A DNA stretch of 52,649 nt from a virus (taxonomy: Duplodnaviria; Caudoviricetes), in IMG/VR virus record IMGVR_UViG_3300035150_000079, positions 1 to 52,649 of that record, one strand, 5' to 3'. The translations under genes were made by a program, and so were the position numbers. Position 1 is the first letter of the stretch. Each line of letters opens with the position of its first letter. Positions 8,689 through 16,562 of this stretch are shown piece after piece. Under the pieces are notes generated by a model. That model made no database searches, was not told the DNA's origin, and saw only the letters and a program-made list of their open reading frames with translations.

Positions 8689-8952
8689 TTGCCTTATCCA
8701 AATGAACACGCTGCTAGGCAATTAGACCCTAAACAATTTAGACGTTTTGCGCGTACTTCAAGGAATTTCCCTAAAGGCGTATCGGCAATAATAGGTTGGC
8801 TTCCTAATGGTAAAAGCAAAATACAATCGCTACGATTTAACATTAGATATTGGTCGGCCGACCAAGCTAGACGTTGGTTAAGGAAACACGGCTATAAATC
8901 TAATATAGAAGAAGCAACATCTAAACATATTAGTTGGGGGAACATACTATAA
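8689..8952 (+). CDS. Putative head-associated small basic protein
   Basis: AGGAGG SD with TTG start; PYPNEHAAR...QSLRF..W...A..WL..H; C-terminus SWGNIL resembles the scaffold tail. Confidence 0.65.
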   Translation: MPYPNEHAARQLDPKQFRRFARTSRNFPKGVSAIIGWLPNGKSKIQSLRFNIRYWSADQARRWLRKHGYKSNIEEATSKHISWGNIL

Positions 8953-10403
8953 TGGTTGTTTCGCTAAGAGATATTGAAAACGCGGAAAGAAGCGAATTAA
9001 TAGACGGATTAAGTCGTTATCGAGACATACACAACGAGTGGATTAAAAGACAAGTAATAAAGAATAATAGAATTGATATATTGGCTACTGAAGTTCTTGG
9101 ATACCAAGTCCAACCGTTTCATTTGGATATGATGAAATATCAATTCTTACACAGAGATAGCCTACAATTAGCTTTCCGAGGCGCCGGAAAAACTACTGTA
9201 TGTACAATATCTAAGGCAATACATTATTTAGTTAAAAATCCTAATTTACGATTGTTGATTGTTTCTCGAACATCCGGACACGCCGAATCTATATTAAAAG
9301 AAATAAAAGTTCACTTCGAAGACAATGAATTGTTGGCTGAAATATTCGGACGGTATTATGATCCGCGTTTGGTAAGAAAATGGGATAACGGAGAAATAGA
9401 AGTTGCGCCAAGAACTCTTAAAGCGAAAGAATCTAGTATAACAACATTAGGGGTGGGATCGCAGGTCGTTGGTAAGCATTATGATATAATACTTAGCGAT
9501 GATATAGTTGACGAAGATAATTCTCGAACAGAACACCAAAGAGAAAAAGTAAAAACATGGTATTACCAAACATTAGATCCTACGTTAGAACCTCCTGATG
9601 GTTTGATAGAACATAGAGGAGAACACCATAGATTAGGGACGAGATATCATTACGAAGATTTGTATGGTCATTTAATAAAAAATGAATTAAAAGAAGATCA
9701 CAATGTAATACCAGCGTTAGACGACAAAGGAAGAAGCCCTTGGCCGGATAAATTCCCTTCGTCTTGGTTTTTAAAAAAGAAGAGACAATCTGGAATAATA
9801 ATTTTTAACGCTCAATATCAATGCGATACAGAGGCGATGAAAGGAGAAATATTCCAGTACGATTGGTGCCAACTAATAGAACCGGATAATATACCTAATA
9901 AATTAAGAATATATATGGGGATAGATTTAGCTATTACAGAAAAAGAAAGCGGAGATAAATTTGCTATATGTATAATCGGGATGGATAAAGGCGGCAATAG
10001 ATACGTATTGGACTTTTTAGACGAACATCTTAGATTCGGCGAGCAAACAAGAGCCATAATTAAATATTATGAAAAATGGAAACCTATAAGAGGTTGTATA
10101 GAAGTTAATGCTTACCAACAAGCCCAACTCCAACACCTAAAGGATGAATACGATATAGACATAAGAATAAGGCCTGTTAACCAAATTAAAGACAAAGTAA
10201 CAAGAGCTTGGAAATTAGAACCTATTTTCGAAGATAAAAGAATGTTTTTTAAAAAAGAAGGGAATATACATCTTATGATAGAGCAATTAGTTCTATTTCC
10301 TAATCACAGATATAAAGATTTATTTGATGCTTTGGATTTGGCGGTAAGAGCTAGCAAAATAAAAAAAAGAGGTAGCAGAAAAAAGGAACCTGGATTATTT
10401 TAA
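8952..10403 (+). CDS. terL: Terminase large subunit
   Basis: Walker A AFRGAGKTT, Walker B DIILSDDIVD, GTRYH..DLY, nuclease motifs GIDLA and DLFDAL; directly precedes portal. Confidence 0.95.
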   Translation: MVVSLRDIENAERSELIDGLSRYRDIHNEWIKRQVIKNNRIDILATEVLGYQVQPFHLDMMKYQFLHRDSLQLAFRGAGKTTVCTISKAIHYLVKNPNLRLLIVSRTSGHAESILKEIKVHFEDNELLAEIFGRYYDPRLVRKWDNGEIEVAPRTLKAKESSITTLGVGSQVVGKHYDIILSDDIVDEDNSRTEHQREKVKTWYYQTLDPTLEPPDGLIEHRGEHHRLGTRYHYEDLYGHLIKNELKEDHNVIPALDDKGRSPWPDKFPSSWFLKKKRQSGIIIFNAQYQCDTEAMKGEIFQYDWCQLIEPDNIPNKLRIYMGIDLAITEKESGDKFAICIIGMDKGGNRYVLDFLDEHLRFGEQTRAIIKYYEKWKPIRGCIEVNAYQQAQLQHLKDEYDIDIRIRPVNQIKDKVTRAWKLEPIFEDKRMFFKKEGNIHLMIEQLVLFPNHRYKDLFDALDLAVRASKIKKRGSRKKEPGLF

Positions 10404-10415
10404 AAGGGAATAATT

Positions 10416-12179
10416 ATGTCTATTGATAATAATGAAGTAATAAAAATAGGTAAATCGGAAAATGCAACTAGTTCTAAGGCTAATCAAAGAATTCTTAGAA
10501 AAATGGGAGCAAGAATATTTTCCGTTGAAAAACAATCAAATAGTCCAGGCAAATCACAAAGCGTACCACAAGATCCGTTTCATACATTAGCGGCTACGGG
10601 AGATGTAATAGAACCGCCGTTTGATCTCCTCACGTTATCTATGTTGCCTGAACATTGCGGAGAAATGATACAATGTTTAGACGCCTTATCGGTAAATATA
10701 GATGGTTTTAATCACAGATTCGTTTCCAGAGTGAAAAAGGGAACAGACGGCGAAGAAATACCTGAAGAATTGAAAAAGTTAGTTAATAAAGAAAAGGTGA
10801 AATTAATTAATTTTTTCCAATATTGTACGGAAGAAACTTTCGTTGATTTCAGAAGAAAACTTAGAGTCGACTTAGAAACAACAGGTAATTCTTATTTCGA
10901 AGTCATAAGGAATTTTTCAGGAGAAATACAATCATTCGTTCATCTTCCTAGTTATCAAATGAGAATGGGAAGATTAGACGATAAACACCAATTGGTAGAA
11001 AAAAAGATTTTAAAATTACAAGAAGACGGAAGTGTTGTAGTAGATACTATGAAAGTGTTTAGTCGTTTTCGGAAATATGTACAAAGCAAAATAACACATA
11101 GACGTAATCTTTCTACAATAGGCGGTTATAAAACAAGTTGGTTTAAACAATACGGCGATCCAAGGAATTATAGCGTAGAAACGGGCGAAATTGTAGCGGA
11201 CGATTATCCGAAAGATAAATTAGCAAACGAAGTAGTACACTTTAAAATATATTCTCCTAGAACGCCTTATGGCCTTCCTAGGTATATAGGAAGTCTATTG
11301 TCTATATTCGGAGATAGGGCGGCAGAGGAAATAAATTACACTACATTTAAAAATAACAATATTCCTTCTATGGCGATATTAGTAAGCAACGGACAACTGA
11401 CCGAAGGTTCTTTGGATAGAATACAAGATTTCGTAGAAAGCCAAATACAAGGAAGCGATAATTATAGCAAATTTTTATTATTGGAAGCAGAAGGTATTAT
11501 GGAAGGAGAGGAATCTGGTCAACATATCAAAGTTGAAATGAAACCGCTTACCGAACACCAACACAAAGACGCGCTCTTCCAAAATTATAGCAAAGGAAAT
11601 CAAGACAGAGTAAGAAGGGTTTGGAGATTGCCTCCTATATTCGTAGGAAGGACCGACGAATACACAAGAACTACCGCAGAGTCTTCAAGAGTTTTAGCGG
11701 ACGAACAAATATTCGCTCCGGAGCGTAATTCGTTTGACGAATTCATTAATAGGGTCATTTTTCCTGAAATGGATATTGTTTACCATAAATACTGTAGTAA
11801 CAGCCCTAATACTACAGATAACCAACAATTAGTAAAGATACTTTCCGGTAGTGAGAAAACTGGCGGTATGACTCCGATTATAGCAAGGGAGATATTGGAA
11901 GATATATTGAGTAAGGAACTCCCTCCGTTCCCGAAAGATTTCCCGGCTGATACTCCATTTAGTCTTACTATGGCGGAAGCAGTAAAGAATAAAGCGGATG
12001 CATCCGAACCAGGCCAACAAGTTACAGCTCTGAAAGTAAAATACGAATCGGCCGAACAAATTGCAGATGTTATCAAAAACGTTGCAAGTTGGAGAACTTA
12101 TTTGGAAAGCGAATTCGAGAAAGCTATAGAAGACGAGAGAACGCCGGTAGAATTGACCGAAACTGATATGGATGTATAG
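10416..12179 (+). CDS. Portal protein (PBSX/XkdE-like)
   Basis: DLETTGNSYFEVIRN, ANEVVHFKIYSPRTPYGLP, RLPPIFVG, AESSR...EQIFAPER. Confidence 0.92.
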   Translation: MSIDNNEVIKIGKSENATSSKANQRILRKMGARIFSVEKQSNSPGKSQSVPQDPFHTLAATGDVIEPPFDLLTLSMLPEHCGEMIQCLDALSVNIDGFNHRFVSRVKKGTDGEEIPEELKKLVNKEKVKLINFFQYCTEETFVDFRRKLRVDLETTGNSYFEVIRNFSGEIQSFVHLPSYQMRMGRLDDKHQLVEKKILKLQEDGSVVVDTMKVFSRFRKYVQSKITHRRNLSTIGGYKTSWFKQYGDPRNYSVETGEIVADDYPKDKLANEVVHFKIYSPRTPYGLPRYIGSLLSIFGDRAAEEINYTTFKNNNIPSMAILVSNGQLTEGSLDRIQDFVESQIQGSDNYSKFLLLEAEGIMEGEESGQHIKVEMKPLTEHQHKDALFQNYSKGNQDRVRRVWRLPPIFVGRTDEYTRTTAESSRVLADEQIFAPERNSFDEFINRVIFPEMDIVYHKYCSNSPNTTDNQQLVKILSGSEKTGGMTPIIAREILEDILSKELPPFPKDFPADTPFSLTMAEAVKNKADASEPGQQVTALKVKYESAEQIADVIKNVASWRTYLESEFEKAIEDERTPVELTETDMDV

Positions 12180-12190
12180 GGAGGCTAATC

Positions 12191-13261
12191 GTGTGTAATG
12201 CCTGCGAGGAAACGCCCTATTCGCTTATAGATAAATCATACTTGGATTTGTTGTACGCAGATTTGTGGGTGGAAAAAGCTTTAGGATTGAAAGAAATATC
12301 TAGGATAGCCAAAGCTGAAATAAGACTTCGAAAGTATTTAGAGGGAAAGTGGAATGTTAGGAGGAATGAAGCTATTGAATCGGCTGTTGGTTTGGCTAGA
12401 AATAGGAAATCCTATAAAACAATATCATCAAACATAAACAGGATAATGAATAAATGGTCAAGAGATGTTTTACCCGTTTATAATTCTGAAATACGAGAAG
12501 TATACAAATTGGCTAGAATAGCCGGTTATAAAAAAGCCTCGGGCAAAACATCCGCATCATTACAATTCAATATCCCTAAAACAACCCCTATTAAAAAAGC
12601 AGACTCTAACATTTCTGTTGATTTTGATTTGGTAGATGAAAATACAATGGAAGCTTTAGAAAACAGAAATATATTTTGGGTTGGCGAACATTACGATAAA
12701 AATATATCCGATTCGGTAAGAGATACGGCCAAATCTGTTATGGTAGAAGCTGGCGAATCAACTTCGTTAGCAGGCCAATTAATGGGGAAACGTATCAAAG
12801 AGATTTTAAGTAAATTTTCAACTCCTGGTGGATTTGTTGGAACAGAAAAACAATATTTCGAAGGATTGGTTTCTAATGCTATGACAGTAGGAAGAGTGTA
12901 TGGACAAATGCGCTCTTTTTCACAGATAGGTATAACAAGGTATGAGATTGTAAATCCTGGCGGAAGTAGGATGTGCGAAGTATGTGCTAATCTACAAGGA
13001 AAAACTTTCGACATAAAACAAGGCTTAGAACAAATAACTAAAGAATTTAAATCTTCATCTCCAGAAGATATTAAAAAGATACATCCGTGGTTAGCTAGTT
13101 CTAAAGTAATAGGCAAGAGTTCCGATTCTTTAGCGTCAATGGGTCTTTCTTTGCCTCCATATCATTTTAGATGTAGATGCACCATAGACGTATCAAGCGA
13201 AGTCGAATCGTTTGAGGATTTAACGCCTATTCCGTTCCCTGTTCCTTCTAAAGCAGCATAA
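12191..13261 (+). CDS. Head morphogenesis protein (Mu gpF/SPP1 gp7-like)
   Basis: RMCEVCANLQGK and PPYHFRCRC motifs; located after portal. Confidence 0.88.
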   Translation: MCNACEETPYSLIDKSYLDLLYADLWVEKALGLKEISRIAKAEIRLRKYLEGKWNVRRNEAIESAVGLARNRKSYKTISSNINRIMNKWSRDVLPVYNSEIREVYKLARIAGYKKASGKTSASLQFNIPKTTPIKKADSNISVDFDLVDENTMEALENRNIFWVGEHYDKNISDSVRDTAKSVMVEAGESTSLAGQLMGKRIKEILSKFSTPGGFVGTEKQYFEGLVSNAMTVGRVYGQMRSFSQIGITRYEIVNPGGSRMCEVCANLQGKTFDIKQGLEQITKEFKSSSPEDIKKIHPWLASSKVIGKSSDSLASMGLSLPPYHFRCRCTIDVSSEVESFEDLTPIPFPVPSKAA

Positions 13262-13414
13262 AATACAATTAAACGATAATTGTTCGTAACGTACGTAATA
13301 TCTGCTATCTTATATAACAATTATTTTTATTTGTATTGTCAGTATTATGAATAATTATTGCCATTCTTTTTAATTTTCAGTAAGTCATTTTAATCTATAT
13401 ATGTGAGGTGAATA

Positions 13415-14023
13415 TTGAGCAACTCAATTAAAAGAACGGCAATTCCATCTGAAGAAAAAAATAAAAGGGTTGTAACGGCTAAGGTTATTGGTGAAAACGA
13501 TTTGGCTTCTTCAGGAAAGAAAAATCCTGCTTCTGCGGGAAATAGCGGGATACCTTTAGAAGAAGACGAAGACGAAAAACGTAAAAAGAAAAAAGAGATT
13601 AACGAAAGCGTTAACAAAAGCATATTTGTTCCGATAATAAAATCTAGCAAACAAGAAAGAACTATAACCGGAGTGGTTTTACAACCTGAAGTAGTAGACG
13701 CCCAGGGTGATATTATGGACAAGGATGTAATACGCAAGGCAGCACACCGATTCCTATCTAAGTACAATAAGGCAACCGAATTAGGTCTGATGCATAAATA
13801 TTTTGGTGACACAGGATTCGAATTGTATGAATCATGGGTTGCTCCACAAGATGTTGTGATTAAAGACGCTTTGGTCAAAGAAGGTTCTTGGCTTATGACC
13901 GTATATGTTGGAAAAGATAAAATATGGAAAATGGTAAATGATGGAAAACTCAAAGGATTTTCTATTGGCGGCAAGGCAAAAGCCAAGAGTATAAGTAATG
14001 AAAAAGAGGGACTAGATGGCTAA
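13415..14023 (+). CDS. XkdF-like prohead serine protease (catalytic core)
   Basis: TGVVLQPEVVDAQGD..I.KAAHRFL, LMH, ESWV, GSWLM, IWKMVNDGKLKGFSIGG. Confidence 0.88.
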   Translation: MSNSIKRTAIPSEEKNKRVVTAKVIGENDLASSGKKNPASAGNSGIPLEEDEDEKRKKKKEINESVNKSIFVPIIKSSKQERTITGVVLQPEVVDAQGDIMDKDVIRKAAHRFLSKYNKATELGLMHKYFGDTGFELYESWVAPQDVVIKDALVKEGSWLMTVYVGKDKIWKMVNDGKLKGFSIGGKAKAKSISNEKEGLDG

Positions 14024-14840
14024 TGTTCCAAAAAGAAGATTCGTAGAATTGAGTGTAGACGAGGTTTCAATAGTTGATAGTCCAGCAAATGAAGAACATT
14101 TCATTGTTATTAAAAATTTACAGGATTTACAGGAGGTAAACATGCCCGGAGAAAAGAACGAAGAAACCACCAAGGATGTTGTAAAGAATGACGACACACA
14201 ACAGAACCCGGAAAAGATTCCCGTTGAAGTCGATAAGGCTACCGATGAAGCTGTTGCGAAAGCGATGGAACAGGTTGCTGATTTAATCAACAACATCTCG
14301 AAATCTTTTGATAATGTTGGCGAAAAGGCTGGCGACAAAGACGAACAAGTAAGCAAAAAGAAAGAAGGAGAAGAGGAAAAGAAAGAAGGGGGAGAGGAAA
14401 AGAAAGAAGTACAAACGAATAAGAATGCCGAGAAAATCGACGATAATATTCGAGAAGCGGCATCAGAGGCGGTGTACGAAGCAATAGCAAAAGCCAAGCG
14501 TTTTACGCCAACACGAGAAGCAGCTTTGAAGGCCGCCATAGAAACGCTGAATAAGTTAGCAAAAGAGCTTGGCATGCAAGAGATACCGATCGGTTCTTCT
14601 CCGTCTACAAACACGCCGTCCGGTACTACGTTTGGTTCGAGTTCGATTACCAAATCCATGGAAGACTTTGTAGCAAAGTTATCAGCGGGCATGGAAAAGA
14701 TAGTGGAAACCACCAAGAACCTTGACAGCAGGATGGAGAAAATTGAAAAGATGGCTGCTCCGTCGAAAAGCGTAGAAGGCGACGGAGAAACTGATAACAA
14801 AGTAGAAAAGAATCAAAATTTTTGGAAGGGTGTTATTTAA
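14016..14840 (+). CDS. Capsid scaffolding protein with N-terminal protease-derived segment; internal start at 14142
   Basis: Begins ELSVDEVSIVDSPAN, followed by a charged helical body ending FWKGVI; AGGAGGT SD at 14131 precedes the in-frame ATG 14142. Confidence 0.82.
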   Translation: MANVPKRRFVELSVDEVSIVDSPANEEHFIVIKNLQDLQEVNMPGEKNEETTKDVVKNDDTQQNPEKIPVEVDKATDEAVAKAMEQVADLINNISKSFDNVGEKAGDKDEQVSKKKEGEEEKKEGGEEKKEVQTNKNAEKIDDNIREAASEAVYEAIAKAKRFTPTREAALKAAIETLNKLAKELGMQEIPIGSSPSTNTPSGTTFGSSSITKSMEDFVAKLSAGMEKIVETTKNLDSRMEKIEKMAAPSKSVEGDGETDNKVEKNQNFWKGVI

Positions 14841-14894
14841 TTGTCCGTCGTAAACAAATTTACACGTAACAATAGAAACCGATAGGAGATAAAA

Positions 14895-16079
14895 ATGCCT
14901 GATATTTCAAACGAAGAATTAGTCCAGAAAGCAGTTATTACGGCGGATGCCTTAGCCAGCAGTGGCAAATTAAATACGGCACAGTCGAATCGTTTTATTG
15001 ATTATGTGATCGATGAAACTGCGTTAAAAGATAACGCAAGAATCATTCGGTTCAGAAATGAAGATTTGGATATCGATAAAATCGGCGTTGGCACAAGGTT
15101 GGCTGTTCCGAAATCAGAGGCTAGGGATCCTGGTATCCGTAGAGGCGTTACGACCTCTAAAATCACATTAACTCCTAAAGAGATTATGGTTCCTTTTGAG
15201 ATTGGCGATACGTTCCGAGAGATAAACATCGAAGGGGATAGCATTGAAAATCACATTATCTCTATGATGGCTCGTCAAGCGGCAAATGACATAGAGGAGT
15301 TATACATCAACGGTAACACGCTAGGTCCGGCAGAGATTGAAGGGAATATAGTCCCCGGCGGAAGCGATACTCAATATGTCAAAGATAGCTATTTGGCTTT
15401 ATTTGATGGTTGGTTAAAGCTTCTCGATAGCGCCAATATCGTTGACGCAGAAGGAGCCAACATCGGTCTTAGTGTTCTTGGTAAAACGTTTAGAGCGATG
15501 CCGACTAAATTCCGTCGAATACTGAAAGATATGCGTTATTATATGGCGCCTGATTTGGAGCAAATTTACTACGAGAAACTTTCCACCAGAGCTACTTCGT
15601 TGGGCGATTCGGTGGCAGGCGGAATGGGACATAGACCGTTTGGTATTCCTATAGTCGGCGTACCTTTGCTTGATTTCTTGCCTTCCGTAACAGAACATAA
15701 CGTATTCTCGTCTGGCGAGGCGTATTCGTTAGCAAACGCTCCTGTTCAAAACGTTATTGTTACTCCGGCTACTTTGGATGATACCCCTACTACTCCATAC
15801 GTAGAAGACACTGATTATACATTAGACGAAGCCAACGGCATAGTAACCGATATCGGGGGAGCACTTGGTACCGCTAAAATAACATACGATGCGAATCCTC
15901 AAATTCTTCTTACACACATGAACAACTTTATCGTCGGCATCGGAAGAGACGTTAGAATCGAGAAAGATCGAGACATCTTTAAGGGCGTTAATCAATACGC
16001 TATAACGTTAAAAGTTGCTGTACAAATTGAAGAACTTACCGCAGCTGTAAAAACTCGTAACGTAGGACAAGGCGTCTAA
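14895..16079 (+). CDS. Major capsid protein (HK97 fold, XkdG-like)
   Basis: GKLNTAQSNRFIDYVID, DIDKIGVGTR, NIEG, ANDIEEL.INGN, FDGWLK, ILLTHMNNFIVGI.RDVRIE; follows the scaffold gene. Confidence 0.92.
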   Translation: MPDISNEELVQKAVITADALASSGKLNTAQSNRFIDYVIDETALKDNARIIRFRNEDLDIDKIGVGTRLAVPKSEARDPGIRRGVTTSKITLTPKEIMVPFEIGDTFREINIEGDSIENHIISMMARQAANDIEELYINGNTLGPAEIEGNIVPGGSDTQYVKDSYLALFDGWLKLLDSANIVDAEGANIGLSVLGKTFRAMPTKFRRILKDMRYYMAPDLEQIYYEKLSTRATSLGDSVAGGMGHRPFGIPIVGVPLLDFLPSVTEHNVFSSGEAYSLANAPVQNVIVTPATLDDTPTTPYVEDTDYTLDEANGIVTDIGGALGTAKITYDANPQILLTHMNNFIVGIGRDVRIEKDRDIFKGVNQYAITLKVAVQIEELTAAVKTRNVGQGV

Positions 16080-16115: not shown

Positions 16116-16145
16116 TCACCAATAAGTCATTGATTGGAGGCAAAA

Positions 16146-16562
16146 ATGACAATTAGAGCAAGAGTGGAATTAATAGGCAGTTTTACTCATAGTAGTAAAT
16201 GGAGGACATTCCGTAAAGGAAATCCTCAAATTCTTACAAATCCCGCAGAGATACAATATTACAAAAACCAGCCTAGTTTTAATGTTGTATTGTTGGATTC
16301 TAAAACAAAAGAAAAAGTTGTAAAAGAGGTAATCAAAAAGGTGAAATTAGAACCGCCTCAAGATGAAGTCGAAGAGGCAGAAGGATACGAAGAAGAGGAA
16401 GAAGAATACGAAGAAGAAGATGATGAGGAATCCGGTTATACAGAAGGGATGCTCAAAGATTTTAAGAAATCACAATTGAGAGCCCTTGCTAATGATTTGG
16501 AATTAGATATCGAAGGAACAAAAAAAGAATTGATAGCTAGGATCATAGAGGCTACCAATTAA
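16146..16562 (+). CDS. Protein with acidic linker and C-terminal SAP/Rho-N-like domain
   Basis: GGAGG SD; poly-Glu tract; LKDFKKSQLRALANDLELDIEGTKKELIARI. Confidence 0.75.
   Translation: MTIRARVELIGSFTHSSKWRTFRKGNPQILTNPAEIQYYKNQPSFNVVLLDSKTKEKVVKEVIKKVKLEPPQDEVEEAEGYEEEEEEYEEEDDEESGYTEGMLKDFKKSQLRALANDLELDIEGTKKELIARIIEATN

Follow-up and report, generated by a model that had tools for sequence, protein, structure and literature searches.

How a prohead protease enters the procapsid in the right number and stays quiet is a long-standing question in tailed phages and herpesviruses, and two solutions are known: the enzyme is fused covalently to the scaffold, or it carries a tail that targets it. 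The question is raised by a locus in a virus record (IMG/VR IMGVR_UViG_3300035150_000079; 52,649 bases, estimated completeness about 52%), the whole of which is referred to here as the window. Its protease gene (open reading frame 1, ORF1) encodes a protease core and ends shortly after the serine motif, and a short hairpin module with the pattern VSxVDxxAN is found at the start of the next gene, a scaffold gene (ORF2). The initial annotation of this DNA had read the pair as one protease split over two genes. This reading holds, the ORF coordinates, the LMH and GFSIGG motifs, the 8-nucleotide (nt) overlap and the GAGGG upstream of the second gene all being confirmed in the sequence. The split is a real, widely conserved gene fission within the XkdF/HK97-type prohead serine protease fold.

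ORF1 belongs to the XkdF-type proteases. Its residues 74-190 match Peptidase_S78_2 (PF14550) over profile positions 5-124 of 126 (E 1.1e-28, 100.1 bits against a cut-off of 24), and it also matches the head maturation protease family phrog_3017 (1.3e-32). Compared with classical XkdF proteins using hhalign, the core gives an E-value of 5.7e-29, and no match of ORF1 to PF04586 was found at E up to 1. His127 lies within LMH (codon 13793-13795) and Ser183 (TCT, 13961-13963) within GFSIGG, which comprises residues 181-186 (13955-13972). These two residues are invariant across the 19 aligned core sequences of alignment A2 and are, by analogy, the presumed catalytic pair; a QPEVVDAQGD block, likewise located in ORF1, is also invariant. 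The tail that follows GFSIGG had been counted as 17 residues and has 16. ORF1 ends at the point where the single-chain relatives P0188, P0194 and P0040 run on with a linker of 20-60 residues.

The Pfam model of PF14550 has 126 positions and ends just past the serine motif, leaving the module outside the model. Classical members of the family nevertheless carry the VSxVDxxAN module in the same chain, unlike ORF1; here it sits at residues 7-33 of ORF2. The ORF2 gene is placed between the protease and major capsid protein genes and its protein starts MANVPKRRFVELSVDEVSIVDSPANEEHFIVIK. No Pfam domain was found in 29 homologues of ORF2 (253-338 amino acids, aa), whose C-terminal FWxGV(I/L) is conserved. 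The module is the most conserved stretch of the protein, its polar residues E16, S18, D21, N25 and E26 being nearly invariant.

The N-terminus of ORF2 had been proposed as the HK97-type segment that ORF1 lacks. A six-frame scan of the window with PF04586 agrees with this, giving a single match, below the family cut-off, between ORF2 residues 2-31 (14019-14108) and profile positions 124-153 of 165. No whole-domain match to PF04586 above the cut-off was found in one protein, from either ORF1 or ORF2. The position of the module within the canonical family can be read from P0040, in which a weak PF04586 stretch (E 0.066, 13.8 bits, below the cut-off) spans the serine motif through the module at profile positions 95-147; the module therefore directly follows the serine strand in the canonical family. 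P0194 (673 aa) is colinear with both genes, ORF1 residues 86-194 aligning to its residues 345-455 (8e-14) and ORF2 residues 8-39 to its residues 495-526 (BLASTP, 2e-9, 56% identity). Residues 447-481 of P0188 match the profile of the ORF2 family with 90% probability in hhalign.

The module of classical XkdF proteins is found at residues ~12-30, N-terminal of the core. The initial annotation had given this order for PBSX XkdF, and it is present in 28201 gp33, 0105phi7-2 gp05, Dulem virus 37, CPAS-15 and PBP180 ORF10. As judged from these alignments, the module can occupy one of three places in this family: behind the core, ahead of it or on the next gene. Single chains with the module after the core are rare, accounting for two of 16 relatives of P0040 and one of the 150 best representatives in the search described below. 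In P0040 itself (592 aa), the first core is followed by a module and, beyond an inserted region, by another core, which stops immediately past its serine. A tandem of this kind could give rise to the permuted order in which the module precedes the core.

Could the split be an assembly or sequencing indel, or a gene in decay? Contigs from three other DNA runs (X2, X3 and X4, with depths of 6, 12 and 271) each cover 13400-14900 in one piece. They contain ten substitution sites in total, none of them inside 14000-14025, and no inserted or deleted letters, which answers the concern raised earlier about an indel at 14000-14025. ORF1 was also used to scan viral contigs; of 75 pattern matches, 27 encode relatives at 40-100% identity. 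One locus (L012) breaks off inside GFSIG at the contig edge, and the remaining 26 could be evaluated. The same split is present in all 26: the protease ORF stops 7-16 residues past the serine motif, and the next ORF begins about 16 residues before a motif of the EVSxVDxPAN type. There are 21 distinct scaffold N-termini among the related loci. With no indel at up to 271x depth, an unchanged layout in loci down to 40% identity and conservation of both ORFs at the protein level, an artefact or a decaying gene is so improbable an explanation that we set it aside.

The split layout is not confined to close relatives of the window. A core profile built from alignment A2 was searched against 1.84 billion cluster representatives (50% identity), with 9,567 hits at an E-value of 0.001 or less, 552 of them at 1e-30 or less. 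Among the best 150 of the 9,567 representatives, 148 have the serine motif by pattern, and 147 of these end 25 or fewer residues later (median 8). The other two (P0152 and P0175) have variant serine motifs and end 7-11 residues later, and P0040 is the sole one of the 150 to run on past the serine motif. No module motif was found near the core among the best 150. It had been suggested that the window is an intermediate between the canonical and permuted forms; this finds no support, since 147 of 148 representatives stop directly behind the serine motif, as befits a large stable clade and not a rare transition.

The best 150 representatives range in length from 136 to 2,016 residues and 52 exceed 600; many of the cores thus form the C-terminus of a large fusion protein. 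Module-less cores that end very large proteins (up to 2,016 aa) include P0057, P0065, P0159, P0182 and P0186-P0189, among others. Some of the large fusions carry a Dam-type methyltransferase (PF02086), DNA ligase (PF01068) or PF18823 domain, and such fusions suggest that cargo enzymes are brought into the head on the protease.

Fourteen named viruses of a phage collection were examined for layout, and seven are split: Rhodobacter phage RcZahn (gp17/gp18), Rhizobium phage RHph_TM16, Curvibacter phage P26059A, the Pseudomonas phages Boevelstad and vB_PseuGesM_254, Limnohabitans phage DC31 and the archaeal virus MSTV1. Six have the module before the core in a single chain: Lactococcus 28201, Bacillus 0105phi7-2, Dulem virus 37, Clostridium CPAS-15, PBP180 and HHTV-2 (the last by pattern only). 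The remaining virus, PhiCh1, has a module-like motif after the core in gpB, by pattern only. The second gene of the split-type phages is annotated as a hypothetical protein, a decoration protein or RNase E/G-like; the split also matters for annotation. The core genes of RcZahn (L034 2441-3085) and RHph_TM16 (L035 2489-3121) have a His-rich tail of about 85 residues between the core and the stop, with several H-x-H pairs; this tail is perhaps an insert that binds metal. In Curvibacter phage P26059A, the core and module-scaffold genes have an annotated GIY-YIG endonuclease gene between them (L033 2886-3491); the two halves tolerate separation by a whole gene.

A programmed frameshift or stop read-through at 14016-14023 would join both ORFs into one protease-scaffold chain. 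ORF2 is in the +1 frame relative to ORF1, the two overlap by 8 nt (ATGGCTAA), and the Shine-Dalgarno-like GAGGG at 14006-14010 sits 5 nt 5' of the ORF2 ATG; these features would suit such an event, as would locus L014 (812-814), in which the core and module-scaffold ORFs are in one frame with a single TAA between them. Stop read-through in L014 would yield a fused chain; this is not so in the window. A TAG stands immediately upstream of the ORF2 ATG in the frame of ORF2, leaving only 8 nt for any shift. The relatives have no common slippery site: their genes either overlap, by 8 nt or by 1 nt, or are separated by gaps of between 1 and 61 nt, with all three frame relations, and because junction lengths and frame relations vary a shared frameshift site is excluded. 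The ORF2 of each relative has its own start about 16 residues ahead of the motif, and the endonuclease gene of phage P26059A also argues against recoding. We consider a joined chain very improbable.

The scaffold gene contains a second start signal. Met43 of ORF2 is nearly invariant among homologues and is preceded by a Shine-Dalgarno sequence. Taking as the criterion an ATG 23-29 residues after the start of the motif with a Shine-Dalgarno core at -15 to -4, an internal start is present in 19 of the 21 distinct relatives (18 with a 5-mer core), compared with 45 of the 827 remaining in-frame internal ATGs of that DNA (5.4%), or 24 of the 827 if a 5-mer core is required. It was not found in L022 and L025. 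The purine run GGAGG is retained in L026 although it there encodes Arg-Gly-Gly, and its retention despite different encoded residues points to a constraint at the nucleotide level. A module-less short scaffold, nested in frame, is predicted to be made from 14142. This conserved internal start had been overlooked in the initial annotation.

Structure prediction with AlphaFold2 (AF2) gives a confident model of the core alone, with a predicted local distance difference test (pLDDT) score of ~90 from residue 68 to residue 186; the flanking stretches, residues 1-66 and 187-202, are predicted to be disordered. Its top structural match among 48,161 solved chains is T4 gp21 (5jbl_A, root-mean-square deviation 3.4, 109 residues aligned), with a Z-score of 7.7 that lies within the typical range of best matches, a Z under 8 being able to reflect a common arrangement. 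The alignment pairs residues 66-186 of the model with residues 5-143 of the chain, which has 165 modelled residues, and ends at the serine. The protease of Varicella-zoster virus gives a Z of 4.0. In the PDB, Foldseek had no match to the core model at E up to 0.001, and ORF1 and alignments A1 and A2, used as sequence and profile queries, matched at chance level only. Against predicted viral structures, Foldseek gave 53 matches at E up to 0.001, the named rows being mostly XkdF-domain proteins.

ORF2 modelled alone has four long helices (residues 77-100, 138-161, 165-184 and 208-246) with disordered linkers between them, a helical model that fits a scaffold role. In this model the first 45 residues have pLDDT values of 42-48 and no secondary structure. 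A module that is conserved yet predicted to be unstructured fits a segment that folds only on a partner, although the model does not indicate which partner.

The protease and the capsid protein share a short tag. It reads DLASSGKK at 13499-13522, in the N-terminal extension of the protease, and ALASSGKL at 14949-14972, near the N-terminus of the major capsid protein; the pattern [DA]L..[SQ]GK[LK] is found just twice in six frames of the window, at these two sites. The tag is conserved in the protease and capsid proteins of relatives, and a looser form is found in 36 of the 150 best core representatives. The tag is perhaps a targeting signal common to both proteins, or else a site of cleavage.

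On balance we lean towards docking in trans, in which the module on the scaffold would bind the protease core and carry it into the procapsid. The fission point would be the linker between the serine strand and the module, and the first ~33 residues of the scaffold would be the two-strand module that is found in the same chain of related proteases. The module would dock on the core in trans as added beta-strands, the protease riding non-covalently on the long-form scaffold into the procapsid. The internal ribosome-binding site and ATG (14142) would also yield the shorter module-less form as the bulk scaffold, and carriage of the protease by the long form only would set the ratio of enzyme to scaffold. 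Inside the procapsid, the protease would then digest the scaffold. Several points weigh against this reading. The match of ORF2 to PF04586 is modest (E 0.002, 13.4 bits, below the cut-off of 21), and the module aligns to residues 3-30 of classical XkdF proteins in hhalign with an E-value of 1.1e-3 and a probability of 20%, a low figure because the module is short. P0188 and P0194 are metagenome gene calls, their fusion being known from the gene call and not from DNA. The related loci are not independent samples, L001-L004 being 99-100% identical to the window, and the fold match to gp21 is subject to the caution on its Z-score given above. The core, modelled confidently by itself, may be complete without the module, all known or likely catalytic residues are in gene 1, and the N-terminal tag of the protease could load the enzyme into the head without the module.

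These last points belong to a rival account that is possible, though rather unlikely: the core needs no completion and works by itself, the protease is taken into the head by its own N-terminal tag, and the module serves some other purpose, for example as a site for docking or resembling a substrate, as a contact between scaffold molecules or as a brake on the protease. It would explain why the core folds alone at high confidence, why His127, Ser183 and the invariant acidic block are all encoded by gene 1, and why the protease extension bears a capsid-shared tag that is conserved in relatives. It sits poorly with a module that has its homologous counterpart within the protease chain of canonical and permuted relatives alike, that accompanies the core gene at all 26 loci, that keeps its five polar residues nearly invariant and that alone has no predicted structure. 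More doubtful still is a two-gene zymogen, whose core would lack stability or activity as long as its barrel has not received its last strands from the module on the scaffold. On this equally doubtful view, proteolysis would start only where the long-form scaffold concentrates, inside the assembling procapsid; the first cuts behind the module would free a completed, diffusing enzyme with the module as a permanent subunit; and the same hook would load the large cargo enzymes (up to ~2,000 residues) fused before cores. Activation had been tied to assembly in the initial annotation, a claim that is weakened by the presence of His127, Ser183 and the QPEVVDAQGD block in ORF1 and by a core that folds alone at a pLDDT of ~90; activation by the module is therefore without support at the level of residues.

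The features of the locus are collected in the table. All large ORFs of the window are on the + strand, in the order DNA ligase, large terminase, portal, MuF-like head protein, protease core, scaffold and major capsid protein, with tail sheath, tape measure, baseplate protein and helicase genes 3' of the major capsid gene. Residues 271-336 of the capsid protein also match an Ig-like domain family (phrog_807, 9.6e-07), which points to the insertion of a surface domain. The capsid gene is followed, at 16134-16562, by one for a protein of 142 residues whose middle is very acidic and whose C-terminus has a SAP domain (Pfam SAP, 5.2e-07); SAP is a DNA-binding motif and is unusual for a head module.

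The DNA runs that hold the window sequence are wetland and marsh metagenomes. Contigs of a wetland metatranscriptome library cover 13729-13923, 14125-14336 and 14391-14900, parts of both genes, which does not in itself demonstrate transcription, and those over 14125-14336 and 14391-14900 reveal neither translation starts nor proteins. A scan of genome contigs with the core alignment gave 68 pattern matches and no relatives, and therefore no clue to the host.

Table. Positions of the protease-scaffold locus and neighbouring head genes in the window
Feature	Position	Strand	Remarks
Large terminase	8934-10403	+	
Portal	10416-12179	+	
MuF-like head protein	12191-13261	+	
Shine-Dalgarno-like GAGGTG	13404..13409	+	5 nt 5' of the TTG start of the protease-core gene; read from sequence
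Protease-core gene (ORF1), XkdF-type prohead serine protease without hairpin module	13415..14023	+	TTG start, 202 aa
N-terminal extension, residues 1-66, predicted disordered	13415..13612	+	pLDDT mostly 41-65
Folded core, residues 68-186	13616..13972	+	AF2 pLDDT ~90 over most of the core
16-residue tail after GFSIGG, predicted disordered	13973..14020	+	pLDDT ~41
Junction	14006..14023	+	GAGGG 14006-14010, scaffold ATG 14016, 8-nt overlap, protease TAA stop 14021-14023
Scaffold gene (ORF2), long form	14016..14840	+	ATG, 274 aa; module, acidic linker, four long helices, C-terminal FWxGV(I/L)
Hairpin module, ORF2 residues 7-33, RRFVELSVDEVSIVDSPANEEHFIVIK	14034..14114	+	PF04586 match, BLASTP, hhalign
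Internal Shine-Dalgarno AGGAGGT (14131-14137) and in-frame ATG 14142 (Met43)	14131..14144	+	Conserved in relatives
Predicted short scaffold form without hairpin module, 232 aa	14142..14840	+	Predicted from the conserved internal start
Major capsid protein gene	14895..16079	+	phrog_1623, 4.1e-75

The protease family and the tying of protease to scaffold are known; the conserved split within the fold appears to be the new aspect. The excerpts returned by a full-text literature search held no description of a conserved split inside the protease fold, nor is a split protease mentioned in the available portions of a review of the T4 head, a paper on ICP1/PLE and a paper on MSTV1. In a large clade, part of the protease fold itself appears to have stayed behind on the scaffold. 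The clade has at least 147 clusters at 50% identity (552 if counted at E up to 1e-30), and among its members are an archaeal virus and phages in culture that infect Rhodobacter, Rhizobium, Pseudomonas and Limnohabitans. If docking in trans is true, this would be a non-covalent version of the protease-scaffold fusion, and a natural split-protein pair that offers a ready-made hook for loading cargo.

The closest known systems are the classical XkdF protease-scaffold proteins (PF14550, PHROG 3017), which have a homologous core, the same VSxVDxxAN...F...K module and the same gene position, between portal/MuF and the capsid protein. They are single chains of 349-419 aa in the order module, core and scaffold, whereas in the window the core is a separate gene and the module heads the downstream scaffold gene. 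The HK97 gp4-type enzymes (PF04586) share the order His ... Ser ... EVSxVxxPA-type strands. They too are single chains, while the window is split, ORF1 having no PF04586 match and ORF2 one below the cut-off. The HK97 enzyme is reportedly loaded through its C-terminal tail. P0188, P0194, P0040 and gpB of Natrialba phage PhiCh1 are colinear with ORF1 plus ORF2, having the core, a linker of 20-60 residues and the module, followed in all except P0040 by a scaffold-like tail; unlike the window, they have no stop codon in the linker. The fold of T4 gp21 and herpesvirus assemblin is the best structural match of the core, with undetectable sequence similarity, and gp21 is one chain that continues past the serine, where the core gene of the window ends.

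Lambda C/Nu3, Mu I/Z and herpesvirus UL26/UL26.5 produce two scaffold forms from one frame, of which the longer alone is joined to the protease, the stoichiometry being fixed in this way. The window has what characterises the lambda C/Nu3 type: within the longer gene, a further start in the same frame is preceded by a ribosome-binding site of its own. The link in lambda C/Nu3, Mu I/Z and UL26/UL26.5 is covalent and involves a whole protease domain, whereas in the window it would be non-covalent, made through a piece of the protease fold.

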